A DNA stretch of 64,000 bases, taken from positions 1 to 64,000 of the IMG/VR virus record IMGVR_UViG_3300025000_000005, one strand, 5' to 3'. Source of the DNA: a virus. The notes beneath the pieces were generated by a model. It saw only the letters and a list, made by a program, of their open reading frames with translations, searched no databases and was not told where the DNA came from. Made by a program: the position numbers and the translations under genes. Below are positions 5,822 to 22,732 of the stretch, piece after piece. The stretch's first letter is position 1. The number at the start of each line of letters is the position of its first letter.

Positions 5822-5831
5822 AGGAGGATTC

Positions 5832-6287
5832 GTGAACAACTTCGAAGCAAGGATTATTTCGGATGGCAATGGCGTTTGTCTGTTTATGGAAAGGAGTGGG
5901 CAACTATACCGGACGCTATCTTTCGAAAAACCAGAGGTGGAAATACCGGCCATCATGGCGGCGTTACAAGAACATTGCCCAAACGAACAGAGAATTTTAA
6001 CCTGCGTTTACTGCGGAATGCATTACCCACCGGGCACCCCGTCTCACGGCGCCCAGGTGCTCACGGATCATATTCGGGTTTGCGAGAAGCACCCGATGCG
6101 GAAATTGGAGGAAGATCGCCAAAAGCTTATCATGGCATTGGCCGGGTTGGTCGGATCAATCGATTCCGAGGAGTTGAAAGCGATGCGTACCGCTACCGAA
6201 ATTGTTCCCTTACCTGCTGACGATAGGTCGGCCGCCCTGAACGCAATCGATACACTAATCGATCTTTTACCGACAATCCAACAATAA
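5832..6287 (+). CDS. Hypothetical phage protein with C2HC zinc finger
   Basis: GTG after AAGGAGG; CVYCG...HIRVCEKHP. Confidence 0.65.
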   Translation: MNNFEARIISDGNGVCLFMERSGQLYRTLSFEKPEVEIPAIMAALQEHCPNEQRILTCVYCGMHYPPGTPSHGAQVLTDHIRVCEKHPMRKLEEDRQKLIMALAGLVGSIDSEELKAMRTATEIVPLPADDRSAALNAIDTLIDLLPTIQQ

Positions 6288-6304
6288 TAAGGAGACCACT
6301 GTAA

Positions 6305-7111
6305 ATGCTCTATCCACACTCAATCGATGCCCGTGACCTACCCGACCTATGGTTCCAGGCAGTTCATGACATCCTTGACCACGGTCGCCGGTTCACCGTT
6401 GACCGAGGATCCTACGCCGGACAAACCCGACTTGAATACGATTTCTTTACCGGGCACATCAGCTTCCCCGGCACTCTGCCCCTGCTTCCGGACATCCCGC
6501 CAGCATGCGGACTACCGAACCCGGTTGAGCACGATTATATTTATGGCGGCCCGGGGTACGAAAGATCCTATCTCGAATACCTCATGACGGACCGCAAGGC
6601 GAAGGGTGAATCCTACACTTACGGCGAACGGCTGACAGCGGCGCCGTTTGATGCGATCATTGCCCGGTATCCTGCACTTGACGGCCGTGCCGACATTTAC
6701 ATCCAGGACGATGATATTTGGCACAACCCGAAAATAGTCCATTGGAGGGCAGGAAACCCGTTCATCAATCAGATAGAGCTTGCCATTCACACGTACCGGG
6801 AACACGGGCACCGGAACAATCAGATGGTGCTCCAGGTCGCACAGCCAACAGACATGACGCTCAAGGACCCGCCCTGCCTGAGATCGATTGATACCCGGAT
6901 TCAGGACGATGCGCTTCATTTCATCGTCTATTTCCGGTCATGGGACCTTTGGGGGGGGCTTCCTGCGAATCTGGCCGGGATTCAGATTCTCAAGGAATAC
7001 ATGGCGTCCGAAATCGGCGTTGCTGACGGGGAAATGATCGTTGAAAGCAAGGGGCTGCACCTGTATGGGTATGCTGAGGATTTGGCTCGGATTCGGTGCA
7101 TGATGGGTTGA
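6305..7111 (+). CDS. thyA: Thymidylate synthase (ThyA family, short type)
   Basis: PPCL catalytic Cys, FRSWD, PANL (Asn, dUMP-specific position), LHLY. Confidence 0.85.
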   Translation: MLYPHSIDARDLPDLWFQAVHDILDHGRRFTVDRGSYAGQTRLEYDFFTGHISFPGTLPLLPDIPPACGLPNPVEHDYIYGGPGYERSYLEYLMTDRKAKGESYTYGERLTAAPFDAIIARYPALDGRADIYIQDDDIWHNPKIVHWRAGNPFINQIELAIHTYREHGHRNNQMVLQVAQPTDMTLKDPPCLRSIDTRIQDDALHFIVYFRSWDLWGGLPANLAGIQILKEYMASEIGVADGEMIVESKGLHLYGYAEDLARIRCMMG

Positions 7112-7138
7112 ATTTATACCGGATTGAATGAGGTCTCT

Positions 7139-7540
7139 ATGGATAAAACAAACCATAAAAAAGTTTATGGTGCTGGTTATTATGCAGGGGTAAAAGACGC
7201 CAGCAATAATTCGAAAAAGATCTGCGGTTCAAACAGGGGATACAGAAACGCTACAAATGCGATGTTGTGTTGGAAGCCACATAGTTCAGAAGTAAAGGTG
7301 ATTCCATGGCCTGATCGCGACGGAAAAAGCGACAAGTATCCTATGTCAGGGCTTGCGGCGTATTCTCACATAAGGCAAATGGATTTTGAGCAAAGGAAGA
7401 CGATTATTTTTATAGAAGCAATGCATTTGATCGTCAGGGACTGGTGCGACCCCGCTTCGGTCCATTTGGCATTACTCGAACTCGAAGAATATAGGGATGG
7501 TTGTTCATCCGACATGCCATGGATGAACAATTGGATATAA
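7139..7540 (+). CDS. Hypothetical protein
   Basis: Open frame with GAGG RBS. Confidence 0.55.
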   Translation: MDKTNHKKVYGAGYYAGVKDASNNSKKICGSNRGYRNATNAMLCWKPHSSEVKVIPWPDRDGKSDKYPMSGLAAYSHIRQMDFEQRKTIIFIEAMHLIVRDWCDPASVHLALLELEEYRDGCSSDMPWMNNWI

Positions 7541-7713
7541 TCGGCCACGTTCCGCGCCCACCGGAACCCGAAACCCCCTGATAACAAATGCGTCCGACGG
7601 TGCGAGCCTAAGAGCGGAATAACGCAAGGCAACAGAATGGGACGGCAGGTTGGTCAAATGGGCGCATAACCGATTTTAAAAGCGGTCCACAGAAAAAAAA
7701 GGATGGAGAAACC

Positions 7714-7977
7714 ATGAAACAACCAGGAATGAGAGCAGGCGCAATACTGAGCGCTGATGCAGCCACGGTCCAGCTTTTGGGCTATGGCACATACGACGGC
7801 GATTTAGAGCACCCAGAAATGGGTATCCCAAACCCACACATCACGCTGGACGATGGGAGCGTAGTGTGGGGTTGCGAGTGCTGGTGGGGTCCCGAAGAAA
7901 AAATAAAGGCTATCATCGGAAACCGAAAGGTTGAAATCGTCACAATGGCGGATTCACGATCCTCGAACCCGTCATAA
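7714..7977 (+). CDS. Hypothetical phage protein
   Basis: GGAG RBS; VWGCECWWG motif. Confidence 0.7.
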   Translation: MKQPGMRAGAILSADAATVQLLGYGTYDGDLEHPEMGIPNPHITLDDGSVVWGCECWWGPEEKIKAIIGNRKVEIVTMADSRSSNPS

Positions 7978-8562
7978 GCCAGCAAGCCCAAGCGTTGCGC
8001 TCCGTCGATACTCGCTCATCCGGACCGTGGAGTGCAACGCAAACCGCCTTAACGTCTCCACCTGGACCTCATGCGATGTGCCATACCCGTGGGCAAGGCC
8101 AACGAACATCCTGGTCGTGTCGAATGTCAATGTTTCCTCGCTCATAATTTCATAATGAAACAGCACACGGGACGGCACCCAGAACAACAGTGCCATCATT
8201 TGGGCCTCACAATCGCACTTGACGATCGACGTCGATGTATAATTTTGCCGAATCGACATTAAATCGGTATGCCCGAGCATGATATGGGAGAACTCGTGAG
8301 CAACGACAAGATCTAAAATAGGCCTATTCAGTGCTGGATTGTAAACGATCACGTACTTACTGCCGACCTTGAAACTGCATCCATACGGCTCATTGGCATT
8401 CGGAATAATGGAGATCCGCCTGTCCTTATGATTTGCTACGTACGCCTCAAATTCGGCAAGGCGCCACGCCCGGGAATTAAACCCATCGATTCTTGATTCG
8501 AAATCACTCACAAGACCAGGAAGGCGTCCGGATACTGACGTCAGTTCGTTGACCGATACCAT
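7972..8562 (-). CDS. ImmA/IrrE-family metallopeptidase (putative anti-repressor protease)
   Basis: AHEFSH (HExxH) plus downstream CEAQ; overlaps the 3' end of the XRE repressor gene. Confidence 0.75.
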   Translation of the reverse strand: MVSVNELTSVSGRLPGLVSDFESRIDGFNSRAWRLAEFEAYVANHKDRRISIIPNANEPYGCSFKVGSKYVIVYNPALNRPILDLVVAHEFSHIMLGHTDLMSIRQNYTSTSIVKCDCEAQMMALLFWVPSRVLFHYEIMSEETLTFDTTRMFVGLAHGYGTSHEVQVETLRRFALHSTVRMSEYRRSATLGLAGL

Positions 8563-9140
8563 TGCCTTTTTACCCTCTCTTCAGCATCGGAAATATCCGA
8601 TTCAAGCTGCGTTTTGATGGCGGCAAAATGCTCACATGCCTGTTCATAGAGACCTGTTAGTGATATTTCTCCAGCATAATATTTTCGGATAAAGGGCGGG
8701 AGGCTGTCCGCCGACATTTTTAAAATCTCATCACCTGCATGCATCAGCATGCCGGACATACCGTATTTCTCGGAAACGATTCTGATAACCTCGACGGCTA
8801 TTTTCTTCTTATCGTGTAGACGCAACAGGGAAAGATACCCCGGGAACGGCTCGGAGCCTTTCTTTTTGCCGATATCCCGGCCCATTGCCACCATCTCTTC
8901 GATCGAGTACCCGAAAAAATCAGCGATAGCCTCCTGGAGGGGCGGCGACATGGCTTTCTTAAAACTCTTTTTGGCGGCTGAAAGCCACTGAGGGGTTTTC
9001 CCGGTTGCTTTTGCCACCTTGGTCATGGTGCCATGGCCGCTGTCGTTAACCAGACGAACGAATGCCTTCATAAAATTTCGATAATTCTTGCTGTCCTTTG
9101 AACTGCGACTGAGCGATATTTTTGGCGTTTCACCGTTCAT
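8541..9140 (-). CDS. XRE-family HTH repressor (CI/ImmR-like)
   Basis: TMTKVAKATGKTPQWLS...LQEAIADFFGYSIEEM HTH; divergent from the Cro-like gene. Confidence 0.75.
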   Translation of the reverse strand: MNGETPKISLSRSSKDSKNYRNFMKAFVRLVNDSGHGTMTKVAKATGKTPQWLSAAKKSFKKAMSPPLQEAIADFFGYSIEEMVAMGRDIGKKKGSEPFPGYLSLLRLHDKKKIAVEVIRIVSEKYGMSGMLMHAGDEILKMSADSLPPFIRKYYAGEISLTGLYEQACEHFAAIKTQLESDISDAEERVKRQWYRSTN

Positions 9141-9318
9141 TTTTTTCCGAAATACACGATCAGATTTAGCCTTGTCAAGGCATCGGTAAAAATTAATCTA
9201 AAAGTTTAACTTTCCCCTTGACAACTTAATCTTTTGGTTGATAGTTAATCCGAAAAATACTAGTTCGGAGTGACATCGACCACGAGTATTGGCTGATAAC
9301 TTCAAGGGGGTACCAGAA
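9141..9318. promoter_or_regulatory. Divergent promoter/operator region (lysis-lysogeny switch)
   Basis: TTGACA on + (9218-9223) followed by GATAGT; TTGACA on - (9173-9178) inside palindrome CCTTGTCAAGG; three TTAATC boxes. Confidence 0.7.
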
Positions 9319-9714
9319 ATGGAATTGTCAAAACTGTCCGAGCTGGTAGGATGCAGTTACCAGCACCTTCATGCGGTTCAATCTCGGAAAAAGGGACTCT
9401 CAAAAGAGTTGGCAGAGTCCCTGGAAAAGGCTACAGGAATCGTTGCGGCCGCATGGATGTGGCCTGAACGGCATCCGGTCAACCCATGGACGGGAAAACC
9501 GAACGTGGAAGGGGAGGTGCCGCCCAAGGAAGAAACGCCGGATCAGCCGACACTCGAAGGGGAATGCCTTGACGACTACCCGGCCGTTATTGCATTTCAT
9601 CAGGCGCTTCGGGATGGAAAATCGATTGAAGAAGCCGAAAGGCTTTTGGACGTGGCTATTGGGGAGTTAAAGCAAACGCTCACAAGATGGAGGGGAGAAA
9701 AGGAAAATGTATGA
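9319..9714 (+). CDS. Cro-like HTH protein
   Basis: LSKLSELVGCSYQHL...LSKELAESLEKATGI; ATG after AAGGGGG. Confidence 0.7.
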   Translation: MELSKLSELVGCSYQHLHAVQSRKKGLSKELAESLEKATGIVAAAWMWPERHPVNPWTGKPNVEGEVPPKEETPDQPTLEGECLDDYPAVIAFHQALRDGKSIEEAERLLDVAIGELKQTLTRWRGEKENV

Positions 9715-9973
9715 TTTTTTCATGGAGTATGCTCCGGATGCCTTAAAAGAGGTTGAAAATGTCGTGGCTGATGGGCGGATGGATGTTGAGGATATAGCAG
9801 AAAGTTTTTCTGTGATGCCTGGCATCCCGCAAATTATTGCGGATGCCATAAGGGAAGCGGTTTTGGTTTCGGCCCAAAACGGAATGAAGCGACGGACCGG
9901 AGGGGCATACCCGATTGACGTGCTCGATTTCGGGACTGATGGTGAGCCCGAACTCTGTAAACTTTTCAGGTAA
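9707..9973 (+). CDS. Hypothetical protein
   Basis: Overlapping ORF with RBS. Confidence 0.6.
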   Translation: MYDFFMEYAPDALKEVENVVADGRMDVEDIAESFSVMPGIPQIIADAIREAVLVSAQNGMKRRTGGAYPIDVLDFGTDGEPELCKLFR

Positions 9974-9975
9974 AA

Positions 9976-10197
9976 ATGAAGATCGGAATCAGAAAGCCGT
10001 CCCTGAATAAACGAATCTCCGCGAGGCTATCCGTGAAGCGGTTTTTGCGGCATAGCCTTGGGTTGAAAGCGCCCAGGGGGTGGGGTTGGATCACGAACCC
10101 GAGGAGAGCGCTTTACAACCGGATCTATTACCGGACAACGGTTGGCGTTGGCCTTCTCGGCGCCGTGGTTTATGCCCTTATCGGCTGGCTTTTTTAG
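9976..10197 (+). CDS. Small basic phage protein with C-terminal hydrophobic tail
   Basis: MKIGIRKPSL..RISAR...GWGWITNP..ALYNRIY, a recurrent phage pattern. Confidence 0.7.
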   Translation: MKIGIRKPSLNKRISARLSVKRFLRHSLGLKAPRGWGWITNPRRALYNRIYYRTTVGVGLLGAVVYALIGWLF

Positions 10198-10268
10198 GGA
10201 CCGTGCATAAAGAAAAAAAGTTCTATTGATAGAAAGATAGATTTTTTTCTTTAAATAAAGGATTGTCT

Positions 10269-10934
10269 ATGCGTAACATGTCGTTCGCAATGACCACTGA
10301 GCAGATCCGGCTCGGTTGTAAAGACGTGACCCGGCGCTTCGGTTGGTGGTTTTTGAAGCCTGGGGATTTGGTTTCTCCAGTAAAAAAGGGAATGGGCCTC
10401 AAAAAAGGCGAGACGGTCAAGAAAATCAGAGGCCCCATCCGGATTGTAAGCGTCCGGTCCGAACAGCTTATCTCTATTAATGACGTTGATGTTTTAAGGG
10501 AGGGGTTTGCCGTCTGGACTCCGGCCCAATACGTCGAAATGATGTGCAAGCATTACCGGTGCGATCCAAGTGAACCGGTCAACCGGATCGAGTTTACCTA
10601 TACCGATTCACCGCACACTAACAAGGCGTTTATCTCAACGAATGAATCAGCCGCCCGAGCCGCCGAATTCTGCAAATGCCATCCGGGGTGGCAACGCATT
10701 TGCGATATCGATGATTCATTTAATCTATATTTGTCGTTTGAGGAGATCCCAAAAGAAGAAAGGAAGTTTTGGAAACACGCTCATGGCGAATACGCCGCCG
10801 ATGCATGGGCGGAATTCGGTGTTGGCAAATGCAGGTTTCCGACCGGTTATATCTCCGGTACCGGCCTTTTTTATTCACACAACCACCACATACCGAAATT
10901 CCACAACTCAATGATGGTCATTAAAACGGGGTGA
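10269..10934 (+). CDS. ASCH-domain protein with C-terminal extra domain
   Basis: MSFAMTTEQIRLGCKDVTRR (ASCH GxKxxTxR-like)...VNRIEF. Confidence 0.7.
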   Translation: MRNMSFAMTTEQIRLGCKDVTRRFGWWFLKPGDLVSPVKKGMGLKKGETVKKIRGPIRIVSVRSEQLISINDVDVLREGFAVWTPAQYVEMMCKHYRCDPSEPVNRIEFTYTDSPHTNKAFISTNESAARAAEFCKCHPGWQRICDIDDSFNLYLSFEEIPKEERKFWKHAHGEYAADAWAEFGVGKCRFPTGYISGTGLFYSHNHHIPKFHNSMMVIKTG

Positions 10935-10937
10935 GTC

Positions 10938-11765
10938 ATGTCAACAAGCAAGATAGAATGGCTGGCAGATAAAAGCGGTAAGCCCGGAGTCACCTGGAAT
11001 CCAATATCGGGATGTTCCCCTATAAGCCACGGCTGCCAAAACTGCTACGCGGCCCGTATGGCGAAGCGTCTTGCCGGCCGATGCGGTTACCCGGCAGATG
11101 ATCCGTTCCGGGTGACACTGCATCAGGATAAAATGAACGAACCGTTGCTATGGAAAAAGCCGAAGCGAATCTTTGTTTGCTCCATGGGGGACCTCTTCCA
11201 TGACAATGTGGCTGACAGCGCCCTCGACCAGATATTCCAGACCATATTCACGTCGATGCGACACACATTCATAGTGCTCACGAAACGGCCCGAGAGGATG
11301 CTTGACTATTTCAACCATTTTTTATGGGGGAAGATTCCGGATAATCTATGGGTCGGCGTAACGGCAGAGAATCAGGAATGGGCCGATAAGCGGATACCGA
11401 TTCTGATGGAGGTCCAGGCTAAGGTCCGTTTCGTTTCGGTGGAACCCATGCTCGGGCCGGTGGATTTAACGCCGTGGTTACCGCATTTCCTCGATTTTTC
11501 GTACACGACCGATCCGCCGCGGCTTGATTGGGTTATTGTCGGCGGGGAAAATGGGCATAGAGCAAGGCCGATGAACCTTGAATGGGTGAGGCTATTACGC
11601 GATCAGTGCGTTCAAGCCGGAACCCCGTTCTTCTTTAAAGGGTGGGGGGAATGGATGCCCGGAGACGAAAAGGACCGGGTCGATCACTTCAAGGTCGGGA
11701 AAAAGAGATCCGGTCGGATGCTCGACGGAAAAGAGTGGAATGAATACCCGGAAGGAGGCTCATGA
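10938..11765 (+). CDS. Phage Gp37/Gp68 (DUF5131) radical-SAM-like protein
   Basis: SKIEW, TWNP, GCSPISHGCQNCYA, FVCSMGDLFH, LTKRPER, WVIVGGE, PFFFK. Confidence 0.9.
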   Translation: MSTSKIEWLADKSGKPGVTWNPISGCSPISHGCQNCYAARMAKRLAGRCGYPADDPFRVTLHQDKMNEPLLWKKPKRIFVCSMGDLFHDNVADSALDQIFQTIFTSMRHTFIVLTKRPERMLDYFNHFLWGKIPDNLWVGVTAENQEWADKRIPILMEVQAKVRFVSVEPMLGPVDLTPWLPHFLDFSYTTDPPRLDWVIVGGENGHRARPMNLEWVRLLRDQCVQAGTPFFFKGWGEWMPGDEKDRVDHFKVGKKRSGRMLDGKEWNEYPEGGS

Positions 11766-12142
11766 AAAGGCTAAAAGTATATGATTTCAAAAATGTAAAC
11801 GATTTTGTCCATGATATAGACGTTGAGTTCGAGGATATGCAGGGGGCTTGCCTTGAGCTGGTGGCTGAGATTGAAAAGCTAAAAAAAGATGTGAGCTACC
11901 TGCTGACCAGGGCGGCCAAGGCTGGCGGTATCGGTTTCGGTGGTGATCGTGATTATGGAGAATCGAGCAACGCCTTGGTCCATTTCGCGTTTACCGGGAA
12001 AACACCGACTGCTTGGCCGTATGACGAAAGCGATTATAAAGCATGCGTATTGGCTGTTAAAAAGCTCCCGAAACATCGAAAATCCGAGGCTGTCTTTAAA
12101 AATTTAGAAATTGCAAAGGCGAAATATGAGTCAAGACGGTAA
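11762..12142 (+). CDS. Hypothetical protein
   Basis: ATGA overlap, GGAGG RBS. Confidence 0.65.
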   Translation: MKRLKVYDFKNVNDFVHDIDVEFEDMQGACLELVAEIEKLKKDVSYLLTRAAKAGGIGFGGDRDYGESSNALVHFAFTGKTPTAWPYDESDYKACVLAVKKLPKHRKSEAVFKNLEIAKAKYESRR

Positions 12143-12332
12143 TGGCGAATGCTGGACGTGCAAGCATTCATTCGTAAAAATACCCATCAATCCAAATCCT
12201 GGCGACTCTTGCGATTTCTGCCGTCGCTTCGGGATTTGGATTCCCTATACGCCTGGAGTCAGGCGCCCTCCGAAGGAATGCAGCTCGTGGTTGCCATATG
12301 CGCCGGAAGAAAAGGCACAGCAAGCTGCATGA
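12126..12332 (+). CDS. Small Cys-rich protein
   Basis: CWTC...CDFC...C; stop overlaps next ATG. Confidence 0.5.
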   Translation: MSQDGNGECWTCKHSFVKIPINPNPGDSCDFCRRFGIWIPYTPGVRRPPKECSSWLPYAPEEKAQQAA

Positions 12333-12477
12333 CCGAAAAGTTTCTTGATATCCTACCTATAATCATCATGGCCGAATCATTTCTGGCCGCTATCCCTTTG
12401 CTTATAGCCCACCGGTGGGGGAGCGCCTCCTATTGGATAGCTGCCTGACTTCTGAATTTCGCGGTTGTTTTCGGAAT
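12329..12477 (+). pseudogene. Small membrane-protein gene with internal TGA, abutting the CRISPR array
   Basis: MTEKFLDILPIII...YWIAA*LLNFAVVFGM: the hydrophobic frame continues past TGA 12446-12448 into repeat 1. Confidence 0.45.
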
Positions 12478-13097
12478 GTCTCATGAACTAACCCCACGAG
12501 CAGGGACTTGAAAGCCATCAGTAATTTCCTCCATCACGTCAATCCACTCAGTCTCATGTACAAACCCCACGAGCAGGGATTGAAAGCCTTTCCCCTTGTC
12601 CTTTATCGTTTCCGGTAACAAGTCTCATGAACAAACCCCATGAGCAGGGGATTGAAAGCACCTGGAATATTTCCGGAATAATTTGTTTGAGCCGGTCTCA
12701 GAAACGACTCCTCTGAGCAGGATACTGAAACTTGACCCATCATAAAACATCAAACAACGACAACACAAGTCTCAGAAACGACTCCTCTGAGCAGGATACT
12801 GAAACCGGATACCGGTGGGCAACTTTACAAAACGAGAAGTTGTCTCAGAAACGACTCCTCTGAGCAGGATACTGAAACGGGCGGAAACCAAAAGAGATAG
12901 TTGAAGCAGTTAAGGTCTCAGAAACGACTCCTCTGAGCAGGATACTGAAACGCCGGACAAAAAAAACAATCCGCACTTGCCCCAAAAGTCTCAGAAACGA
13001 CTCCTCTGAGCAGGATACTGAAACAGAATCTACCTTGAAAAAAATTGCGCCGCCGATGGGGTCTCAGAAACGACTCCTCTGAGCAGGATACTGAAAC
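12478..13097 (-). CRISPR. CRISPR array: 9 repeats (36-37 nt), 8 spacers (35-37 nt), two repeat types
   Basis: Six identical GTCTCAGAAACGACTCCTCTGAGCAGGATACTGAAAC at 12695, 12769, 12842, 12915, 12988, 13061; three variant repeats of type GTCTCATGAACAAACCCCATGAGCAGGGGATTGAAAG at 12478, 12551, 12622. Minus orientation inferred from leader position and cas gene strand. Confidence 0.97.
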
Positions 13098-13251
13098 AGT
13101 ATACCTAAAAACCGTTTAAAAAGCAACACATTATCCATGGTTTTTCGAGAGGTCGGCATCCCGGAACCCACCATACCGCCGACCTCTCAAATAGAGCCCA
13201 CCATTTTTAAACAAAATTCAAAAATAACAACGGCATAAACTTTTCGAGCGC
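13098..13251 (-). promoter_or_regulatory. CRISPR leader
   Basis: AT-rich, lies between the cas stop and the conserved array end; perfect 11-bp inverted repeat GAGAGGTCGGC (13147-13157)/GCCGACCTCTC (13178-13188); TTTTCGAG direct repeat. Confidence 0.7.
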
Positions 13252-15051
13252 TCACGGGGTTTCCGGCGGAACATCACCGCTCGAATCGAGGTAGGCGGTC
13301 AAAAGATTCTTGGACGCCGCCCAATCCTGATCGTAGACCTTCCCGCACTTGCTGCACTGGACCATGATGTTCGTTTTCCGGCCCGGCTTGATAGTCCCGC
13401 CGCAAAACGGGCATGTTTTTGTGATATTCTTCGAGTCTAACTTGACGTGTTCCTTCCCGGCAGAGCGCATGGCCCGTATGGTTTCCGTCCTAAAAGTCGA
13501 AACGGAAGCGAGATCGCTCATTCTCCTGATATGGTCGTCATTGTCCGCGCCCTCCTCGGCTTTCTTCTTCCCCTTCGTTTTTCGGAGGTCAAAATCCTCC
13601 TGGATGACGACATCATATTCTTTTGAAAGTTTGAGCGCAATCTTCCGGTATTCGCACAATCGCCGGCCGCGGATACGGTCCGACAAATTAGCATGCCATT
13701 GCCATAAATGCTTGTCCTGTTTGCGCCACGCCTCAATTTTGTTAAACGCCTCTTCGTCTCCATGGAATCGAAACTCGGGCGGGTCCCCTTCGCGCCGGAA
13801 TCCTCTGCCACTCCACTGAATCGCTACCGATGCCAGTTGAGCCTCAGATTTCCAGCTCATCATCATTTTTGTCCTCTCCGATAGCCACGGCGGAACGATA
13901 TCGGCGTTTGCCTTTTTCCACTCATTGAACCATGCAACGGTTTCATTGAAATTTTTCTTCCGGATGCCTTGAAGCGATGCCGCCTTTTCGTTCGAGACGG
14001 TATATTCACTTCCCAGCAGGATCTCTTCTTCGACTCCCCGGCTGTCAAGCATATAGGCTATGCGTGTCGCCAGACCCTTGGCCCTCCATCCTATATTTAT
14101 GGCGACACAATGCCCGGTCCTTTCAAGCGGGACCGAACAATCTTCCCGGACGGTGACAGTTAAGGACCACACGAATTTATCGGCCAGCTTCGAAACATGT
14201 ATTGAAACAGACTTGATTTCGGCTGATTCCGGGATTGGTCTATGCATGACGATGGGTATTTCAAGCCAAATGGGAACGGTCTTTTTTTCTCCGGAACCTA
14301 TCCGGATTCGCGCTTTGGTCCTTTTCAACCGCCCTCGCTCTCCCCTGGACGGGTGAGTCCAAGCATCGGCTGGCAATCGGTCGATCTGAAAATAGTTGTT
14401 GGACCCAAGAAAAGCCTGAGTGATGTTCATGCCGCCTTGTATTTGGCATGTCCACCGGCCAACCCGCTCAAATCGGTGGAATTGAAGCTCGGGTCTTTTT
14501 TGGCCATCCTCTACTTGCGTCTTCATGATTGCCATTCGAGCCGTTTCGAATGAATCCATTACAGCCAGATAGTTGCCCCAATAAAGGCCGTTTTGGGCAT
14601 ATTCTTGACGAATGGCCACGTTCTTATCGTATCGCTCACCATCCAACTCGTGGAGCTGAGGCTTAACCGTGTCCTTCACGAATGCCCATATCTCTTTCTT
14701 TTCGGCTATCAGGGGTTTCTTTTGCGCCTTCAGTTCGACAATCTCGGCCTTGAGGTCGGAAGGCGTGCCTTTGATGCCGTCCTGGCGCCCCTTCTTGATC
14801 TCGGTTCGTATCTCTTCTGTCCTCACCTTGATATCCTCTATTTGCTTCCTCAGAACCGGCAACCGGGCATCGGCACCATCTCGAATAGCCCAGTATTTTT
14901 CCGTAAAAACCTTGTCGGCTTCCACGAGCGCATTCCAGAAACGGTTTTGAAGGCGAAGCTGCTCCATGGCGACCTCGCTTTCGACAGCCGTTTTTAGCGG
15001 GGATCCAAATTTGTAGACTCGGGCACTTTTGTCGGACTTTGACCTTTTCAT
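13252..15051 (-). CDS. cas12m: Type V-M CRISPR effector Cas12m (V-U1/C2c4), RuvC predicted nuclease-dead
   Basis: 599 aa; colinear Cas12m motifs GLYWGNY, FHRFE.VGR..CQIQ, MHRPIP, VAINIGWR (RuvC-I), WKS..QL, W..QDKHLWQW, IQEDFD (RuvC-II), CPFC/CSKC zinc finger, YDQD (RuvC-III); adjacent to the array. Confidence 0.88.
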   Translation of the reverse strand: MKRSKSDKSARVYKFGSPLKTAVESEVAMEQLRLQNRFWNALVEADKVFTEKYWAIRDGADARLPVLRKQIEDIKVRTEEIRTEIKKGRQDGIKGTPSDLKAEIVELKAQKKPLIAEKKEIWAFVKDTVKPQLHELDGERYDKNVAIRQEYAQNGLYWGNYLAVMDSFETARMAIMKTQVEDGQKRPELQFHRFERVGRWTCQIQGGMNITQAFLGSNNYFQIDRLPADAWTHPSRGERGRLKRTKARIRIGSGEKKTVPIWLEIPIVMHRPIPESAEIKSVSIHVSKLADKFVWSLTVTVREDCSVPLERTGHCVAINIGWRAKGLATRIAYMLDSRGVEEEILLGSEYTVSNEKAASLQGIRKKNFNETVAWFNEWKKANADIVPPWLSERTKMMMSWKSEAQLASVAIQWSGRGFRREGDPPEFRFHGDEEAFNKIEAWRKQDKHLWQWHANLSDRIRGRRLCEYRKIALKLSKEYDVVIQEDFDLRKTKGKKKAEEGADNDDHIRRMSDLASVSTFRTETIRAMRSAGKEHVKLDSKNITKTCPFCGGTIKPGRKTNIMVQCSKCGKVYDQDWAASKNLLTAYLDSSGDVPPETP

Positions 15052-15060
15052 GCATTCTCC

Positions 15061-15591
15061 TTATTTTTTCTTGAACGTGGTCGACATCTGGAACAAATCA
15101 TCGGTGGAATAGGAATACATAGCTGCCAGATACAAATCGAAATCGTCTTGCGTGTATTCGGTTTCGAGTTGCTTCCGGACCGTGGCATGAAACAGCTTCA
15201 CGGCGTCCGGTTTCAATCCGACGATTTTCATCCCTTTTAGGATAGGCCCATCGAGCAGGTAAAACGTGATCGCGTTTTTCACCTGACCGTTTTCGGGTTC
15301 CATGTAGTCGTCTATCCGTGCCTGGTCCACAACCCGTGCGTTAAAGCTGCAATCGATCCGCCCGAACGGTTTCGGGAAATCGAAGATCCAGATGGCTATA
15401 GGAACCGGAGTTGAGGATTCAAGGTATCCGTACCACTGGAAGGATTTTTTGAACATCTGCCGCTCAGGGCGGGCAAGTTGGGGGAACTGAATCAGGCAGG
15501 TGAGCCCGCCGCCCCAAAGCTCCAGCGTAATTCCCTCGACTATCGGGACCGGACCGGGAAAGATTTCGCCTACTCTAAATGTGGTCAGCAT
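15061..15591 (-). CDS. Hypothetical protein immediately upstream of cas12m
   Basis: Start MLTTFRVGE after AGGAG; stop lies 9 nt before the cas12m ATG. Confidence 0.7.
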   Translation of the reverse strand: MLTTFRVGEIFPGPVPIVEGITLELWGGGLTCLIQFPQLARPERQMFKKSFQWYGYLESSTPVPIAIWIFDFPKPFGRIDCSFNARVVDQARIDDYMEPENGQVKNAITFYLLDGPILKGMKIVGLKPDAVKLFHATVRKQLETEYTQDDFDLYLAAMYSYSTDDLFQMSTTFKKK

Positions 15592-16048
15592 TATCGGTCT
15601 CCTTTCTGTCGCAACGCGCAACCATCTGCTCGTCAATTCCCTTCGAGTATGATGGCTTTTTCCCCGGGGAGCGATACCGGACCATCTCAAGATCATCTTG
15701 AGCTATTACCCACCGGCCGTCTTCATCCATTTTAGCCGGGAGGTCCTTGTTGCTTATTAAGGCATTGACTCGTCGCCGTGCCACTCCAAGCGCTTTGGCC
15801 GCCGCCGCCGTACCGATCGTTTTGATGGTGATGATATGGCCAAGTCCGAGTTCTGAAAATCTGAAAAAGAACTTTTCCGGCCATACCGTGGTTCCGGAAA
15901 ACATCCGGACCACTTCAGAGGAAGGGACCTCATCGGGGATATCCACAATGATATATGTGCTGGTTCGACCGTCAGTGCCCGGTTTTGCCAGTGGGTTTTG
16001 AAGCGTTGGCGCACCCCCGCAAACGACTTTGATTTTTAGTGACTTCAT
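15575..16048 (-). CDS. Protein with C-terminal MerR/excisionase-like HTH
   Basis: IGTAAAAKALGVARRRVNALISNKDLPA...GRWVI; ATG after GGAGG. Confidence 0.7.
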   Translation of the reverse strand: MKSLKIKVVCGGAPTLQNPLAKPGTDGRTSTYIIVDIPDEVPSSEVVRMFSGTTVWPEKFFFRFSELGLGHIITIKTIGTAAAAKALGVARRRVNALISNKDLPAKMDEDGRWVIAQDDLEMVRYRSPGKKPSYSKGIDEQMVARCDRKETDNADHI

Positions 16049-17247
16049 TTCGCCTCCCCGTCCGCTATCGCCGTGCATGCCCAAATCCTGCCTGACAGCT
16101 CCGGCGAAAAAGGAACCCGCCAGCCGATCGCCCCCGCGCCGCCCGTCCGGATATTGTTACGACTCCACATATCGCCGTCCGCCCCGTTGTTTTGGACATA
16201 CCAAATCCATTCCGGACCGATGACAAACCAATCACCGCCGCCATAGATGGTTCCCCTATCGGAAACACGGCCGCCTTCCGGGAAAATCGGTCCATCAGGA
16301 TACTCTCCGGATTTTTTGATCTCTTCGCTGATGGCACTGCGTTCTTTCTCAGCGGCTTTCTTTTGCTCACGTTCGGAAATTCGCAATCTCACCGGCGCCG
16401 ACTCCTCATCCGTGGCCGCCCTGCACCTGGCTGAAAAATAATATCCCTGATCATCTCCAACGCCGAACGAAAGGCCATCCTCCCTGAAATATTTTTTCGT
16501 GCAGGAAACTACATAGACGAATTCGGGATAATCTGGATATCGCTCAGGGGAGTTTTTCAGCACTTGCCCGACATGGTATTCTTCATATCCATATCCGGAA
16601 CCGCCGCCGATCCGGTAGGGCGCTTCCGCTTCCAGTTTTTCCGCCTGAACTTTGGCCGCGGAACAATCAACATGCTCAAGAAACTTCTCCCCGCCCTGGT
16701 ACCGGTAATGCGCTTCTTGCCCCGGGTCGATCCTGCTTTCGAACTTTGAACAATAACCGGTCCGTTCGGCGATCCAGCTTTTCCCGAAACTGGACTTTTG
16801 GGCCTTTGCCTCTTTGGCCTTTTGCGAAGCGGCCCTGGCATCTGCAACGGCAACCAGCATGCGGTTGTGCAGGTCCGCGTGATCCTCGACACCAAGTTCC
16901 TTCAGCTTGGAGACACCTTTTTCGTAGACATACCCCTCTGCGACCTTCGATTCGACAAACCCGAGCCACCGTTCAAGCTCTTTTCGGTTCGAGGCGCCCG
17001 CTGTTCCGGAAATCGACTTGATCCAGTTCTTTAAAACTGTCGTGAAGGATTTGGCCTTATCCAGGGGGACCACGAACAGCTTACGGTTTTCCCTGGCTTT
17101 GCCGTCCCAGTATCCGCCGAGTCGCTTTATCCGGCCGGCAAGATCCTCATCGTATCGGCCTTCGATAAGAATGTCGGATCCAAAAAGCTTGGTCGTGTAC
17201 CCGGTCGGGAGTTCGACTTTTTCTTCCCTATATATCCACATTGCCAT
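16045..17247 (-). CDS. Hypothetical multidomain phage protein
   Basis: 400-aa ORF, GGAG RBS, stop overlaps next start. Confidence 0.75.
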   Translation of the reverse strand: MAMWIYREEKVELPTGYTTKLFGSDILIEGRYDEDLAGRIKRLGGYWDGKARENRKLFVVPLDKAKSFTTVLKNWIKSISGTAGASNRKELERWLGFVESKVAEGYVYEKGVSKLKELGVEDHADLHNRMLVAVADARAASQKAKEAKAQKSSFGKSWIAERTGYCSKFESRIDPGQEAHYRYQGGEKFLEHVDCSAAKVQAEKLEAEAPYRIGGGSGYGYEEYHVGQVLKNSPERYPDYPEFVYVVSCTKKYFREDGLSFGVGDDQGYYFSARCRAATDEESAPVRLRISEREQKKAAEKERSAISEEIKKSGEYPDGPIFPEGGRVSDRGTIYGGGDWFVIGPEWIWYVQNNGADGDMWSRNNIRTGGAGAIGWRVPFSPELSGRIWACTAIADGEAK

Positions 17248-17257
17248 GATGCTCCCT

Positions 17258-17295
17258 TTCTGGCCGAATCTTAAAATTCTGGCCGAATCTTAAAA
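17258..17295. repeat. 19-bp perfect tandem duplication TTCTGGCCGAATCTTAAAA x2
   Basis: Copies at 17258-17276 and 17277-17295. Confidence 0.9.
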
Positions 17296-17652
17296 ATTAT
17301 CGATGTAAAATTTCTTGATAGCCTCGCCAACCGCCTGCGAGGAGAACTCCCCGCCTTCGCCGCCGAGGTGCGTGATCCATACGCCGGTTCCTTCCGGGGA
17401 TCTCGACAAAAGGAATTCCCCGATCAGGATCTTTGGATTCCGAAGCAGCAAGGCCATGTTCGGCGCTTCGGAGATCAGGCGTGCATTCGCCATCATTTCG
17501 TTTTGGGATATGGCGCGACGGACCCAATACCCATCGGTTTGGGCTATCCGGACCATTTGGCCGCCTACGCCCGCGCGGATCGAGACTGAGTTCGTAACCT
17601 TATCCATGTCTGTCAGCCATGGGCCGGGGGTGTGGTCGTTTAATATGGTCAT
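17290..17652 (-). CDS. Phage protein of the HTPGPW...ANARLI family
   Basis: HTPGPW and ANARLISEAP motifs. Confidence 0.75.
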   Translation of the reverse strand: MTILNDHTPGPWLTDMDKVTNSVSIRAGVGGQMVRIAQTDGYWVRRAISQNEMMANARLISEAPNMALLLRNPKILIGEFLLSRSPEGTGVWITHLGGEGGEFSSQAVGEAIKKFYIDNF

Positions 17653-17963
17653 GGCATATCCCCGTCTATCCCCAAAATATCCCCAAGCATTGCGTGTATC
17701 GTTTCCTTAACTTTTTTGATCGCTGCCTTTTCCGCACTTTTAAACGGGCAGGCGCTTGAGCATAACTCATAGTCTTCAATTCCGAGCTGCTCGGAATCCA
17801 GTGTGTATTTCCCTTCAAGGCCCGGATAATTTTTTTCGATGGAGATCAAAAAACTATTACACTGCCACACCCACCGGCTTTGATGATCACTCTTTCTCTT
17901 ACTACGACCGTAAACCGTTTGATCCTCCCATTTCATCTCCCCGCTTCCGAATTCTTTTTTCAT
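17649..17963 (-). CDS. Hypothetical protein
   Basis: ATG after GGAGG; overlapping stop/start. Confidence 0.65.
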   Translation of the reverse strand: MKKEFGSGEMKWEDQTVYGRSKRKSDHQSRWVWQCNSFLISIEKNYPGLEGKYTLDSEQLGIEDYELCSSACPFKSAEKAAIKKVKETIHAMLGDILGIDGDMP

Positions 17964-17964
17964 T

Positions 17965-18168
17965 TTAATCCTCCACGATTTCAACTTCGTCTTTGAAAAA
18001 ATAATAACACCGGCATGCTTCTATCTTTTTGCCGAATATGATCGTCTGCGTTTTTCCGGGGAGAGTCACCATATAATCGTATTTATAGTAATCGCTTGGC
18101 AGTACATCCCCTGTTTCTCCAGCGCGGAACCTATCCATCGGATCGGTATATAGTATCTTCCCCTTCAT
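17965..18168 (-). CDS. Hypothetical protein
   Basis: MKGKILYTD start after AAGGA. Confidence 0.55.
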   Translation of the reverse strand: MKGKILYTDPMDRFRAGETGDVLPSDYYKYDYMVTLPGKTQTIIFGKKIEACRCYYFFKDEVEIVED

Positions 18169-18173
18169 CGAAC

Positions 18174-18305
18174 CTAATCCTTTATACAAACCATGATCAA
18201 GAGCGCACATGTGAGCCCAAAGCCTGTCGCCACGCCTTCAAGATGCATCACGTATGCGCCAAGTCCGCAAATCCCGATTACCCCCAACCCTTTGCCGATG
18301 CTCAT
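18174..18305 (-). CDS. 43-aa small hydrophobic protein (not in ORF track)
   Basis: MSIGKGLGVIGICGLGAYVMHLEGVATGFGLTCALLIMVCIKD; GAGGAGG RBS; ATGA overlap with the upstream stop. Confidence 0.55.
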   Translation of the reverse strand: MSIGKGLGVIGICGLGAYVMHLEGVATGFGLTCALLIMVCIKD

Positions 18306-18523
18306 TGTCCCTCCTCGACATGCGATATTTCGAGCCACTCCCCGTCCATGAGCTGTGCGGCCGCATCCTGTGCTGAGTGAATATCGTCCGGGTCGATGTC
18401 GTATTGGTCTAACCCGTAAGCACTAACATAATCGAATAAATCAAACTCTCTCCCGGCCTCGACGTAAAATTTAAATCCTGAAAAATCAGGCGTTTTCGTT
18501 TTTGTGATTTCTAATTTTTTCAT
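18302..18523 (-). CDS. Small acidic protein
   Basis: 73 aa, D/E-rich; AAGGA RBS. Confidence 0.65.
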   Translation of the reverse strand: MKKLEITKTKTPDFSGFKFYVEAGREFDLFDYVSAYGLDQYDIDPDDIHSAQDAAAQLMDGEWLEISHVEEGQ

Positions 18524-18534
18524 GATCCAGTCCT

Positions 18535-18711
18535 TTATTTAGTTGCCGTGTAGGTATTCGGTGCGAAAATCGGGTCACGCCGGATAGCAGCATGCTCGTT
18601 TATCCACCCAACGACATTCATGAGTTCCGGTAAAGATCCGCACCCTTTTGGGCATGAAGTTTTCCCGCAGTTTTTAGACTGGCACGCTTGGGGATACTGC
18701 CTTGTTTCCAT
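18535..18711 (-). CDS. 58-aa Cys-rich protein (not in ORF track)
   Basis: METRQYPQACQSKNCGKTSCPKGC...; GGAGG RBS. Confidence 0.6.
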   Translation of the reverse strand: METRQYPQACQSKNCGKTSCPKGCGSLPELMNVVGWINEHAAIRRDPIFAPNTYTATK

Positions 18712-18753
18712 GGTCTCAATCCTCCATTATTTCCAGCCGGAAGCCGGTCGGGT

Positions 18754-19032
18754 TTATCGGCGTTTTTTTTCGAAACCCCATTTCCCAAACCCAATTTCCA
18801 CCATTCCGGGTTGAATATCCTCCCCGGACATTTTCCCCCACTCTGTGCCATCCTCACCGACAACGCTTCGGCCGGAGCCTATCTCCACCGGCGACAACCC
18901 GTGACGGTTGCAGATTTCCTGCATTGCGGCTTGAACCCTATCCACTCTCCCGGAATCGTTGGTATGATCGTATGTAATGGCATCGATTATTTCCCCGTTC
19001 TCATTTATCGCTACAACCTGGTATTTTATCAT
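18754..19032 (-). CDS. Small acidic protein, first gene of the leftward operon
   Basis: GGGGG RBS; downstream of a TTGACA promoter. Confidence 0.6.
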   Translation of the reverse strand: MIKYQVVAINENGEIIDAITYDHTNDSGRVDRVQAAMQEICNRHGLSPVEIGSGRSVVGEDGTEWGKMSGEDIQPGMVEIGFGKWGFEKKRR

Positions 19033-19083
19033 GTCTCAATCCCCCGTTTTTTGGTTTTTGGTTTTTCCCTCACCTTTTTCTCG

Positions 19084-19213
19084 ACACTATTCCAACCCTG
19101 GTATAGTTGTCAAGAAAAAAATAAAGAAATGAAGAAATAAATTTAAAAAGCTGGCAACAATCCTTTTTAAATACATTTATTTCTTGCACTCGAAAAAGAT
19201 TTTATTATATGAT
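19084..19213. promoter_or_regulatory. Divergent sigma70-type promoters (leftward operon ending in cas12m; rightward int-par-rep operon)
   Basis: Minus-strand TTGACA at 19108-19113; plus-strand TTGCAC (19184)-18 nt-TATGAT (19208); AT-rich. Confidence 0.5.
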
Positions 19214-19544
19214 GGCTAATCATCTGGCAAATAGCGTCCGGATCAACTCAAAGATTCATGCTTAAGTGATTAAAATTATGAATAACCCAAACTGTAAAGC
19301 GGAAAAGGCGGGCCACAACACACCAATAATAGGCGCCGTCATCAGCTTTCCGGTTAAAACCGAATCCGCCACCCATAATAGCGACTCGCCAACTTTACGG
19401 GAAAAGATAGCGAGCCGAAAACGCGCAAAATATGGATATATTCTAATAGGTTGCGAATCAAAACAGGCCATACCGGTATCTTTAAGGGTCGGTCTGTCGC
19501 CAACTTTTAACGATTTTTCAATGTTTCTTGGCGAGGGGTGAAAA

Positions 19545-20150
19545 ATGAAAAACGGATCTCAGCTTGCTCTCAACAGGCCACAAAAAGGGGATATAATCTC
19601 CGTTTCACCGGTCCGGAGCTTAAGGGATATTTCCCATATCAAGAAGAACCTCTGGCGGCACCCCCGGAATTATGCCCTGTTCGTGGTCGGGATCAATACC
19701 AGCTTCCGAGCGTCCGAACTGGTATCGATCCGGGTCGGGGACGTGAAGCACCTCCGGCCTATGGATTCGTTCAAGCTCAGGGAGAAAAAAACCGGCAAGG
19801 TGCGGGAAATCCATTTTAACCAAGCGTGCGTTCTTGCCGTCCGCAAGCTGCTCTCATCCAGGAAATATTCGGATGATGATTTTCTATTCCGTAGCGAAAG
19901 GACCGGAGGCGCCCTGACCGTATCGGCAGTCCACAGGTTGGTCAAGTCCTGGTGCCGGGATCTTAACCTGCTCGGCAATTTTGGCAGCCACACTCTCCGA
20001 AAAACGTGGGGGTATCATCAGCACTCGACCTACGGAGTGAGTCTGGCAAGCTTGATGAAATGTTTCGGTCATAGCGATTCGGCAATAACGCTACGGTATC
20101 TCTGCATTTCGGATGCCGACCTACAAAGGGTCTACTCGAATGAATTGTGA
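19545..20150 (+). CDS. Tyrosine recombinase, catalytic-domain only (multimer resolvase type)
   Basis: RNYALF..GINTSFRASEL, EKKTGK, HTLRKTWGY, FGHS, TLRYL. Confidence 0.9.
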   Translation: MKNGSQLALNRPQKGDIISVSPVRSLRDISHIKKNLWRHPRNYALFVVGINTSFRASELVSIRVGDVKHLRPMDSFKLREKKTGKVREIHFNQACVLAVRKLLSSRKYSDDDFLFRSERTGGALTVSAVHRLVKSWCRDLNLLGNFGSHTLRKTWGYHQHSTYGVSLASLMKCFGHSDSAITLRYLCISDADLQRVYSNEL

Positions 20151-20159
20151 GGTGTCCGG

Positions 20160-20828
20160 ATGATCATCAGTTTTGTAAACCAGAAGGGCGGAGTCGGGAA
20201 AACCACCATGGCAATAAATATCGCCCATGCGCTATCGACCCGCAACAAGGTGCTGCTGATCGATACCGACCCGCAGGGGAGTGTCGGCCGATGGCAGGGG
20301 ATATCGGGCGCCAGTTATTTTGACGTACTCCATCACCCAAAAGTCATTCACCAAAAAATTGAGGCGCTTTCGGCAGGCTACACTCATACCGTGATCGATG
20401 CCCCTCCAGGCATCAGCGAATTAACCCTTTCGTGCCTGCTGAGTTCCGACATGGCGATCATACCGATTACGCCCAGCCCACTCGACATTTGGGCGAGTGA
20501 CGACATTTTGCCGCTTGCCAGTGAGGCAAAAACGTACCGGCCTGGCTTGGCGATAAAAATCCTCATTACAAAAAAACAGCCCAATACGGTTGTCGGTAGA
20601 GAGGTGCGGCAGGCATTAGAATATTACCGCATGGAAATTTTTAAAACGGAAATAGGCCACAGGATTGCGTATGTCAACGCCATGATAAATGGAGAGACCG
20701 TCCTGTCTCACGCACCTATGAGCGCACCCGCCCGGGAAATAAGCGCCCTTTTACGCGAAATTTTAACTAATAAGGAGAAAAAACAAAATGGTAAAATCAT
20801 TAAAGGACATGCCCGCCGTAGTAAATAA
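20160..20828 (+). CDS. parA: ParA (type Ib/ParF-like) Walker ATPase
   Basis: NQKGGVGKTT, IDTDPQGS, IDAPP; no N-terminal HTH. Confidence 0.92.
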   Translation: MIISFVNQKGGVGKTTMAINIAHALSTRNKVLLIDTDPQGSVGRWQGISGASYFDVLHHPKVIHQKIEALSAGYTHTVIDAPPGISELTLSCLLSSDMAIIPITPSPLDIWASDDILPLASEAKTYRPGLAIKILITKKQPNTVVGREVRQALEYYRMEIFKTEIGHRIAYVNAMINGETVLSHAPMSAPAREISALLREILTNKEKKQNGKIIKGHARRSK

Positions 20829-21282
20829 GCCGGAAGCACGGCAAAAACGTTCTAAAAAAGACGCCAAAGGCATACCAGGAACCGTATTTATGAATGCGAA
20901 AATCAATTCAAGCCTGAAAAAGGAGATAAAAAAGCATTGCACGCTGAGGAGAATAACCATTCGATATTTTGTCGAAGAGACGATTCGTGAATACCTTCAC
21001 GCGGGGTTGCTGTCACGCAAACAGAGCATATCGTCCAAAATTACGGGGGATATGTCCATTAGACTCGCCGAACTGGCGGCGGAGCGAAGTGGTGGTGTCG
21101 TGCACATGCTCAGGCCCAAAAGCAAAAGAGCCGGTCGACTCAACGTAGAGGTGAGCATCGACGCGCAATGTAAAATGAAGCTGCTTTGCGTAAGCACAGG
21201 GGCGACTATTCAATATTTTTTAGAGGAGGCTATTACCTGGAAACTGAAAAAGGAATCGAATGAGAAGGAGGGGGGGGGGTAG
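20788..21282 (+). CDS. Putative centromere-binding protein with two RHH-like repeats
   Basis: NAKINSSLKKEIKKHC...TIRYFVEETIREYL and NVEVSIDAQCKMKLLC...TIQYFLEEAITWKL; directly after parA. Confidence 0.6.
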   Translation: MVKSLKDMPAVVNKPEARQKRSKKDAKGIPGTVFMNAKINSSLKKEIKKHCTLRRITIRYFVEETIREYLHAGLLSRKQSISSKITGDMSIRLAELAAERSGGVVHMLRPKSKRAGRLNVEVSIDAQCKMKLLCVSTGATIQYFLEEAITWKLKKESNEKEGGG

Positions 21283-21284
21283 CC

Positions 21285-22370: not shown

Positions 22371-22374
22371 AGGG

Positions 22375-22703: not shown

Positions 22704-22732
22704 AAATTTTAACCCAAAAAAGAACCGATCCC

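Follow-up and report, generated by a model that had tools for sequence, protein, structure and literature searches.

A putatively non-cutting type V-M CRISPR system on the genome of a distantly P1-like phage

Cas12m is the effector of type V-M CRISPR (clusters of regularly interspaced, short palindromic repeats) systems. Orthologues with D-E-D, H-D-D and N-D-D RuvC triads bind double-stranded DNA (dsDNA) flanked by a protospacer-adjacent motif (PAM) without cutting it and without collateral activity (PMC11013384), and their processing of precursor CRISPR RNA (pre-crRNA) is independent of RuvC (PMC11013384, PMC10442227). V-M systems are strongly enriched on plasmids and are also found in some prophages, in connection with competition between elements (2024 review, PMC11656645). 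A September 2026 preprint on MvCas12m of myxophage MV-1 reported it as the first phage Cas12m (10.64898/2026.09.14.751636). Here we describe a V-M locus on IMG/VR virus record IMGVR_UViG_3300025000_000005, a complete virus genome of 90,778 bp with 127-bp direct terminal repeats, whose first 64,000 nucleotides are the stretch of DNA analysed (the window). The locus consists of a gene for a 599-aa Cas12m protein, a leader and an array of eight spacers, all three of which had been pointed out in an earlier interpretation of the bare letters (the sequence-only reading) and are present where it placed them (Table 1). We consider it probable that this is a non-cutting interference system owned by the phage and aimed mainly at related mobile elements.

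By sequence comparison and modelled fold, the locus is a type V-M Cas12m locus. The best PDB match in phmmer searches was Cas12m chain 23vw (577 aa, named 'CRISPR-associated DNA-binding protein Cas12m'; E 1.3e-76, residues 14-585), followed by GoCas12m (8pm4, 1e-28), MmCas12m2 (8hhl/8hio, 1e-24) and UnCas12m4a (23vu, 5e-17), the matches to all four structures being full length (residues ~5-590). A profile made from 30 relatives returned the same four proteins (23vw, 5e-177; GoCas12m, 3e-113; MmCas12m2, 2e-111; UnCas12m4a, 3e-79), with TnpB, Cas12f, Fanzor and CasPhi following from 6e-13 over the last ~140 residues only. An AlphaFold model built on the alignment of the relatives (predicted local distance difference test 87.8, predicted template modelling score 0.76) superposes on MmCas12m2 8hhl and GoCas12m 8pm4 with template modelling (TM) scores of 0.79-0.80, the next folds being Cas12f and TnpB at 0.37-0.42. 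Its long helices at residues 26-182 and 348-478 are those of the Cas12m fold, which is bilobed with a REC 'roof' insertion and a helical RuvC insertion. Thus, both the hidden Markov model and the structure comparison upheld the earlier assignment to type V-M rather than to TnpB of insertion sequences (IS). By E-value the nearest protein is the D-E-D protein 23vw; the phage protein is far from the HDD clade, with ~20% identity to HDD Cas12m proteins.

Conserved residues outside the catalytic site were also located. The pair His270-Arg271 in the WED domain is invariant in the 30 relatives and, by motif and alignment position, appears to be the counterpart of the MmCas12m2 His269/Arg270 pair that recognises the crRNA scaffold (PMC10442227). 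The four cysteines of a zinc ribbon (C547, C550, C566 and C569) are invariant or nearly so in the relatives. Pfam and NCBIfam recognise only the C-terminal TNB/TnpB-like part of the protein. All matches to TnpB models are confined to that end and fall below the curated cut-offs (guided_TnpB, 52.6 bits against 100; IS607 TnpB, 24 bits against 350; IS200 TnpB, 20 bits against 425), and the TnpB core has ~400 aa compared with 599 aa here. An identity as IS200/IS605-type TnpB was excluded by these scores, by the length of the protein, by its REC/roof insertion and by the adjoining array.

The RuvC triad of the phage protein is N319-E485-D576. The minus strand of 14083-14106 translates as VAINIGWR, and the Asn codon in this motif as well as the retained RuvC-II Glu and RuvC-III Asp, all described in the sequence-only reading, were confirmed by sequence and alignment. 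With Asn at the position of the first Asp, the two-metal RuvC/RNase H site loses a metal ligand. Among 30 metagenomic relatives the triad was mostly D-E-D, including the closest ones (45-47% identity), with several cases of N-D-D, H-D-D, N-G-D and N-E-D; D-E-D was also the triad of most of the 46 viral relatives found in IMG/VR, which has at least that many related loci. The Asn had been singled out as a notable feature of the locus, which it turned out not to be. Wu et al., as relayed in PMC10442227, distinguish four Cas12m clades according to the triad and list NED for clades 3 and 4, and none of four D-E-D orthologues tested displayed dsDNA or collateral cleavage (PMC11013384), so that Asn319 adds little. 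It is in keeping with a protein that does not cut, yet it is nothing new and does not account for the family's lack of cutting. By analogy with the published orthologues, the phage protein would bind DNA in a PAM-dependent manner without cleavage, process its own crRNA and silence its targets.

The main array (array 1), with repeats starting at 12478, 12551, 12622, 12695, 12769, 12842, 12915, 12988 and 13061, combines repeats of two types and is thus a hybrid. Types A and B differ by compensatory changes that keep both stems of the predicted crRNA pseudoknot: from A to B, a U:A pair of stem I becomes C:G, and CUCAGA/UCUGAG of stem II becomes CUCGUG/CAUGAG. A metagenome-assembled genome (MAG) of Desulfosudis oleivorans has a V-M array (9750-9862 of a locus on contig DYJD01000027.1) whose repeats share 89-91% identity with type B; this array lies directly downstream of a Cas12m gene whose product is 34% identical to that of the phage. 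The recognition of the three cas-distal repeats as a co-varying second type, together with the discovery of a second, three-repeat mini-array outside the window, went beyond the earlier description of the locus.

Table 1. Position of the V-M locus, its parts and the other features of the phage genome discussed in the text. Coordinates are those of the window, or of the whole genome where indicated.
Feature	Position	Strand	Description
cas12m gene, 599 aa	13252..15051	-	type V-M effector, full-length matches to solved Cas12m chains
Codon AAT, Asn319 (RuvC-I)	14095..14097	-	Asp in most relatives; D at the aligned position of PDB 23vw
Codon of Glu485 (RuvC-II, VVIQEDFDL)	13597..13599	-	from alignment; coordinates computed from ORF start 15051
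Codon of Asp576 (RuvC-III, YDQDWAAS)	13324..13326	-	from alignment; nearly invariant among relatives
Leader, 154 nt	13098..13251	-	between cas12m stop codon and first repeat
Array 1	12478-13097	-	nine 37-nt repeats with eight spacers (34-37 nt)
Leader-proximal part of array 1	12695..13097	-	six identical 37-nt repeats (type A), spacers s1-s5
Leader-distal part of array 1	12478..12694	-	three variant repeats (type B), spacers s6-s8
Second mini-array	genome 70960-71140 (outside window)	+	three repeats, two spacers
Tail-protein gene	genome 71143-72321	-	phrog_1722, 2e-84
Plasmid-type maintenance module	19545..21282	+	tyrosine recombinase, ParA-like ATPase, small Arc/RHH-like protein
Tyrosine recombinase, 201 aa	19545-20150	+	PF00589, phrog_216
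ParA-like partition ATPase	20160-20828	+	CbiA, 50 bits; phrog_164 at 3e-46
Small Arc/RHH-like protein	20788-21282	+	weak phrog_582
DarB-like methyltransferase-helicase, 2080 aa	27154-33396		phrog_1685, phrog_11801, phrog_10089
SbcD- and SbcC-like genes	1086-5087		

The fold of the crRNA was predicted by comparison with that of PmCas12m (preprint 10.64898/2026.03.26.714355), in which positions -28..-26 pair with -15..-17 and positions -23..-20 pair with -3..-6. We lengthened the latter stem as far as the pair of -18 and -8 and scored the pairing on 25 repeat types, of which 18 came from related IMG/VR arrays (24 examined) and seven from this phage. On the cas12m strand, 206 of 225 cells were paired, compared with 89-119 when the partner was slid by 1-2 nt, and compensatory changes were many. 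The repeats of the phage are predicted to form the published two-stem pseudoknot of Cas12m crRNA. As they pair on the cas12m strand, the array should be transcribed with cas12m, and its leader should be the region between the two. Of the 46 viral relatives, 29 share this layout, with an array that begins 100-250 nt past the cas12m stop codon on the coding strand. The period of the relatives' arrays is mostly 72-74 nt, and their fully resolved repeats have 36-37 nt and follow the pattern ...CCTGC-stem-GG(C)-loop-stem-GAC.

The leader contains a hairpin with a 15-bp stem at ~13144-13191 (minimum free energy -46.9 kcal/mol, z -2.8), which has no U-tract on either strand and is not a canonical terminator. 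By eye, a weak promoter-like TTGCTT-17-TATACT that ends at the first repeat may be discerned, whereas a scan of the leader for sigma-70 consensus promoters reported none, this site included. The open frame of cas12m, the six identical repeats and the identity of the sequence in four groundwater runs indicate that the locus is intact.

The mini-array provides the one clue to a target. It lies 68 nt past the plus-strand open reading frame (ORF) 70351-70890 and 2 nt from the stop codon of the tail-protein gene on the minus strand, and its repeats combine features of types A and B. Its spacer 2 aligns without gaps to this tail gene at 72068-72102 with 27 identities over 35 positions, the best of 200 shuffled spacers reaching 25. 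When read in frame, only one of the eight differences changes a residue, replacing R by K (FDRKARSARKKY vs FDRKARSARKRY, ...RKRY), the other seven being synonymous. The match is immediately preceded, on its 5' side and on the strand identical to the crRNA (non-target strand), by TTTA, in agreement with the T-rich 5' PAMs of Cas12m. The nearest homologues of the tail protein in databases are 50-56% identical and those in IMG/VR 34-38%, and none of the database homologues has the peptide of the spacer; with identities of at most 56%, the donor of the spacer is expected to be a much closer relative of the phage. The simplest reading of this alignment is that spacer 2 was copied from the same tail gene of a close relative. 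Since five of the eight mismatches fall among the 11 PAM-proximal positions, the phage's own copy should escape binding.

No adaptation module accompanies the locus. The Pfam models of Cas1, Cas2 and Cas4 had no match in the whole 90,778-bp genome while they matched control genomes, in line with the absence of cas1, cas2 and cas4 noted in the sequence-only reading. When the genome was scanned on both strands with position weights, exactly 12 repeat units came out, nine in array 1 and three in the mini-array, and no anti-repeat or solitary repeat scored above the maximum of the shuffled genome. The earlier statement that no trans-activating crRNA (tracrRNA)-like anti-repeat is visible therefore holds for a strong one, and a weakly complementary tracr-type anti-repeat could escape such a scan. 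A degenerate pattern of the Cas12m repeat matched neither the 185,579 species genomes nor IMG/VR. Its one match in metagenomes, a single repeat-like unit at 147-173 of contig Ga0129333_10144980 (2.2 kb, GC-rich) with no array around it, was judged uninformative. It had been proposed that the phage borrows host Cas1-Cas2 to acquire spacers; no array of such repeats was found in the species genomes and no array variants in the four groundwater runs, and this proposal is not sustained. From the mixed repeat types we infer that exchange of array segments by recombination is at least as likely as a supply of spacers by host Cas1-Cas2.

The carrier is, as judged from its gene content, a distantly P1-like phage. 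Its portal protein matches only P1/P7/D6-like phages, with 35-36% identity (36% to P1 Prt), and genes of P1-type virions and accessory functions are present (tail tube, tape measure, baseplate, tail proteins, antirepressor and several methyltransferases). A megablast of positions 5000-25000 of the window against the deposited phage and plasmid collections gave no nucleotide match, indicating that the relationship to P1 is distant. A ParA-like ATPase, a ribbon-helix-helix (RHH)-like protein and a short tyrosine recombinase, which could be a resolvase or an integrase, make a plasmid prophage plausible. The DarB-like giant protein and the SbcCD-like genes represent a heavy load of anti-restriction and DNA-metabolism functions, as is usual in P1-like phages. 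Close to array 1, ~700 bp past its distal end, a DUF5131 protein (PF07505, 8e-90; phrog_2045) is encoded at 10938-11765, and DUF5131 homologues lie at most 6 kb from Cas12m genes in two other viral loci. A homologue of the ORF at 16045-17247 is found near the Cas12m gene of one other locus. This neighbourhood may be recurrent, or it may be a coincidence.

DNA of the phage is present in groundwater metagenomes from several studies. In contigs of four groundwater runs, the sequence of the locus was identical and no array variants were seen, apparent 'joints' being due to the second array. The identical tail protein is recorded on nine contigs, the longest of 90,792 bp. Tail-protein homologues with 53-55% identity are found in the genomes of Desulfosarcina alkanivorans and D. 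cetonica. Together with the nearest genomic Cas12m relatives, they offer a lead, and only that, to Desulfobacterota as a possible host group. Portal homologues were searched for in five MAGs with Cas12m relatives, and none was found; the D. oleivorans MAG likewise lacks a P1-like portal.

In the mechanism that we propose, the 599-aa Cas12m would be expressed from the minus strand, and array 1, downstream on the same strand, and its putative partner, the mini-array at 71 kb, would be transcribed. The transcripts would be processed, with no need of RuvC, to crRNAs in which a pseudoknotted repeat handle of ~30 nt is followed by the spacer. The Cas12m-crRNA complex would recognise a T-rich 5' PAM and the protospacer, bind dsDNA tightly without cutting and block transcription or replication of the target element. 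Competitors among mobile elements would be the likely targets, and first of all the phage's close relatives. A fuller version of this proposal, which we put forward tentatively and which may well prove wrong, is that P1-like phage-plasmids of anoxic groundwater silence essential late genes of their close relatives, such as the tail gene, during co-residence or superinfection, their own genes escaping by synonymous recoding, and that their arrays are built and exchanged by phage recombination with no part for Cas1-Cas2. Recombination of arrays between phages would account for the mixture of repeat types as well as for the chimeric repeat of the mini-array.

A number of findings weigh against the proposal of an interference system aimed at related elements. 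While the analyses above show to which family the protein belongs, how the locus is laid out, how the crRNA is predicted to fold, that adaptation genes are lacking and where one spacer came from, it is a single spacer, located in the mini-array and not in array 1, that suggests the competition role. Array 1 gave chance-level matches only (E at least 0.6) by blastn (E up to 10) against 50,697 phage and 72,556 plasmid records. Spacers s1-s3 and both mini-array spacers had no match as exact 24-mers in IMG/VR, nor was an exact protospacer of spacer 2 found among the IMG/VR tail-gene homologues. Array-1 spacers resembled the phage's own genome neither in DNA (best 21-23/36, within the null) nor in peptide, and self-targeting by these spacers was excluded at both levels. 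The type B repeats and the mini-array are putative guides of the 599-aa Cas12m, and the non-cutting behaviour of the N-E-D protein is extrapolated from assays on D-E-D, H-D-D and N-D-D orthologues. As to lifestyle, ParA is the lone marker pointing to a plasmid state, as searches of the phage genome for a Rep_3 initiator and a ParB_N domain found neither. The identical Cas12m protein is recorded on 12 contigs, the longest of 274,338 bp, and the same cas12m gene may also reside in a larger or integrated element.

Claims of the sequence-only reading on lifestyle and targets were thus upheld in part. Of the P1-like phage-plasmid, the distantly P1-like virion genes and the ParA- and RHH-like proteins speak for it and the lack of Rep_3 and ParB_N speaks against it, making this identity plausible, not proven. 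Use against competing elements or host genes gained one spacer from a relative's tail gene for its first half, while no spacer matched a host gene. A search with the eight array-1 spacers, as it had suggested, gave no match above chance level in the phage and plasmid collections, and the one hint of a PAM is the TTTA flank at the match of spacer 2 of the mini-array.

The same machinery might be directed at the host, with guides that silence chromosomal genes for defence or metabolism in lysogeny or during infection. Such host manipulation or counter-defence would suit a non-cutting effector, since its repression of host genes could be reversible, and nine of the ten spacers had no target in the collections of phages, plasmids and viruses that were searched. 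Yet the single traceable spacer comes from a phage tail gene, and a search of the array against the five MAGs with the nearest genomic Cas12m relatives returned repeat matches and chance-level matches only. Surveys of V-M systems on mobile genetic elements also find mainly spacers directed at such elements (PMC11656645), and we regard a role of this sort as unlikely. Control of the phage's own genes is another option, in which Cas12m would keep, for instance, the late tail genes off in the prophage by means of partial guides or repeat handles. The resemblance of the mini-array spacer to the phage's own tail gene and the TTTA flank there agree with it. The mismatches of this spacer are nevertheless placed unfavourably, as Cas12m needs a contiguous heteroduplex of ~17-18 bp (PMC11013384), and the preponderance of synonymous differences indicates homologous divergence rather than a tuned partial match. 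With no solitary repeat anywhere in the genome and no other spacer that resembles it, self-regulation appears very improbable.

The protein might still be a nuclease, the N-E-D triad or another site cutting or nicking DNA, in which case the phage would carry a conventional cleaving immunity. E485 and D576 are kept, and the closest relatives (47% identity) have D-E-D. Hydrolysis of DNA by the DED and NED clades was speculated on by Omura et al. (PMC10442227), and activity of the DED Cas12m of MV-1 is an assumption of the preprint on that phage (10.64898/2026.09.14.751636). Against this stand the failure of all four tested D-E-D orthologues to cleave and the reversion of HDD to DED in MmCas12m2, which did not restore cutting (PMC10442227). 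In the phage protein, moreover, the Asn removes a ligand of the two-metal site, and a cleaving enzyme is improbable in our estimation. Finally, the gene could be a non-functional one, either a TnpB of IS type or a decaying remnant, with repeats next to it by chance. The naming of only the C-terminal part by Pfam and NCBIfam, with guided_TnpB below its cut-off, is the kind of result such a gene would give. This idea is largely refuted by the full-length Cas12m match in sequence and fold, the intact frame, the conserved zinc ribbon and His-Arg pair, the six identical repeats, the cas12m-then-array layout shared with viral relatives and the identity of the sequence across samples, and we give it almost no credence. 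The proposal that we prefer remains a phage-owned system that binds, and does not cut, the DNA of related elements.

The locus would be a case from nature in which a phage, and probably a phage-plasmid, has a programmable CRISPR effector of its own that, by analogy with its orthologues, binds DNA rather than cutting it. It provides a traceable hint of what a V-M system is aimed at, in this case the tail gene of a close relative, and supports the view of V-M systems as weapons between mobile elements. By what route arrays evolve when adaptation genes are absent is a question that the hybrid arrays pose. For technology, a compact 599-aa N-E-D Cas12m with a defined crRNA handle, as predicted, and a probable T-rich PAM may be of use. 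A phage Cas12m locus does not open a new category of system.

Compared with the characterised Cas12m proteins (MmCas12m2, 8hhl/8hio; GoCas12m, 8pm4; MsCas12m; PmCas12m; 23vw), the phage protein is alike in its size of ~600 aa, its full-length homology and its fold (TM 0.8), in the WED His-Arg pair and the zinc ribbon, and in the lack of adaptation genes and, as far as a strong anti-repeat goes, of a tracrRNA. Its repeat of 36-37 nt, predicted to fold into the same pseudoknot of two stems that stops 2 nt short of the spacer, and the T-rich 5' flank at the one traceable protospacer homologue are also shared. The tested triads are D-E-D, H-D-D and N-D-D, whereas that of the phage, N-E-D, is listed only, in the classification of Wu et al. 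as conveyed by PMC10442227, and lies outside the biochemically characterised ones. The phage system also differs in being on a phage genome, with two arrays and two repeat types.

The closest counterpart by setting is MV-1, which likewise has a complete phage genome, a Cas12m gene with an adjoining eight-spacer array and no cas1, cas2 or cas4; no tracrRNA was reported there, and protospacers of the main array were found in neither phage. MV-1 Cas12m has 610 aa, a D-E-D triad (D305/E463/D555), one consensus repeat and a myxobacterial host. Unlike MV-1, the present phage has N-E-D, a hybrid array, a second mini-array, a P1-like backbone with ParA and one spacer of traceable origin. With the V-M systems of plasmids and prophages and with type IV-A3 (PMC11656645; preprint 10.1101/2023.06.23.546257), it has in common interference by binding, the absence of an adaptation module of its own, a carrier that is presumably extrachromosomal and competing elements as probable targets. 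Type IV systems have several subunits and DinG, unlike the single-effector Cas12m, and acquisition in trans by host Cas1-Cas2 was shown for IV-A3, whereas it has no support in the case of the phage, no array with the phage's repeat having been found in the species genomes.

Virus-borne mini-arrays (SPV1/SPV2 and others; PMC11656645) resemble that of the phage in having two spacers, a spacer derived from a relative and a diverged copy of the target in the carrier itself. Classical viral mini-arrays use the repeat and the Cas proteins of the host, whereas the repeat of the phage mini-array belongs to its own Cas12m family. CasPhi of huge phages is thought to target competing elements. This effector (Cas12j; PDB 7odf) is similarly a compact type V protein of phages, with an array and no adaptation genes, but it is an active nuclease of another subtype that matches the phage Cas12m weakly (profile E 3e-5, C-terminal part). 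In summary, V-M on plasmids and prophages (PMC11656645), phage Cas12m (the MV-1 preprint) and at least 46 related IMG/VR loci are known already, while the hybrid array of two repeat types with compensatory changes, the mini-array at 71 kb and a spacer with a readable origin in a tail gene are new.

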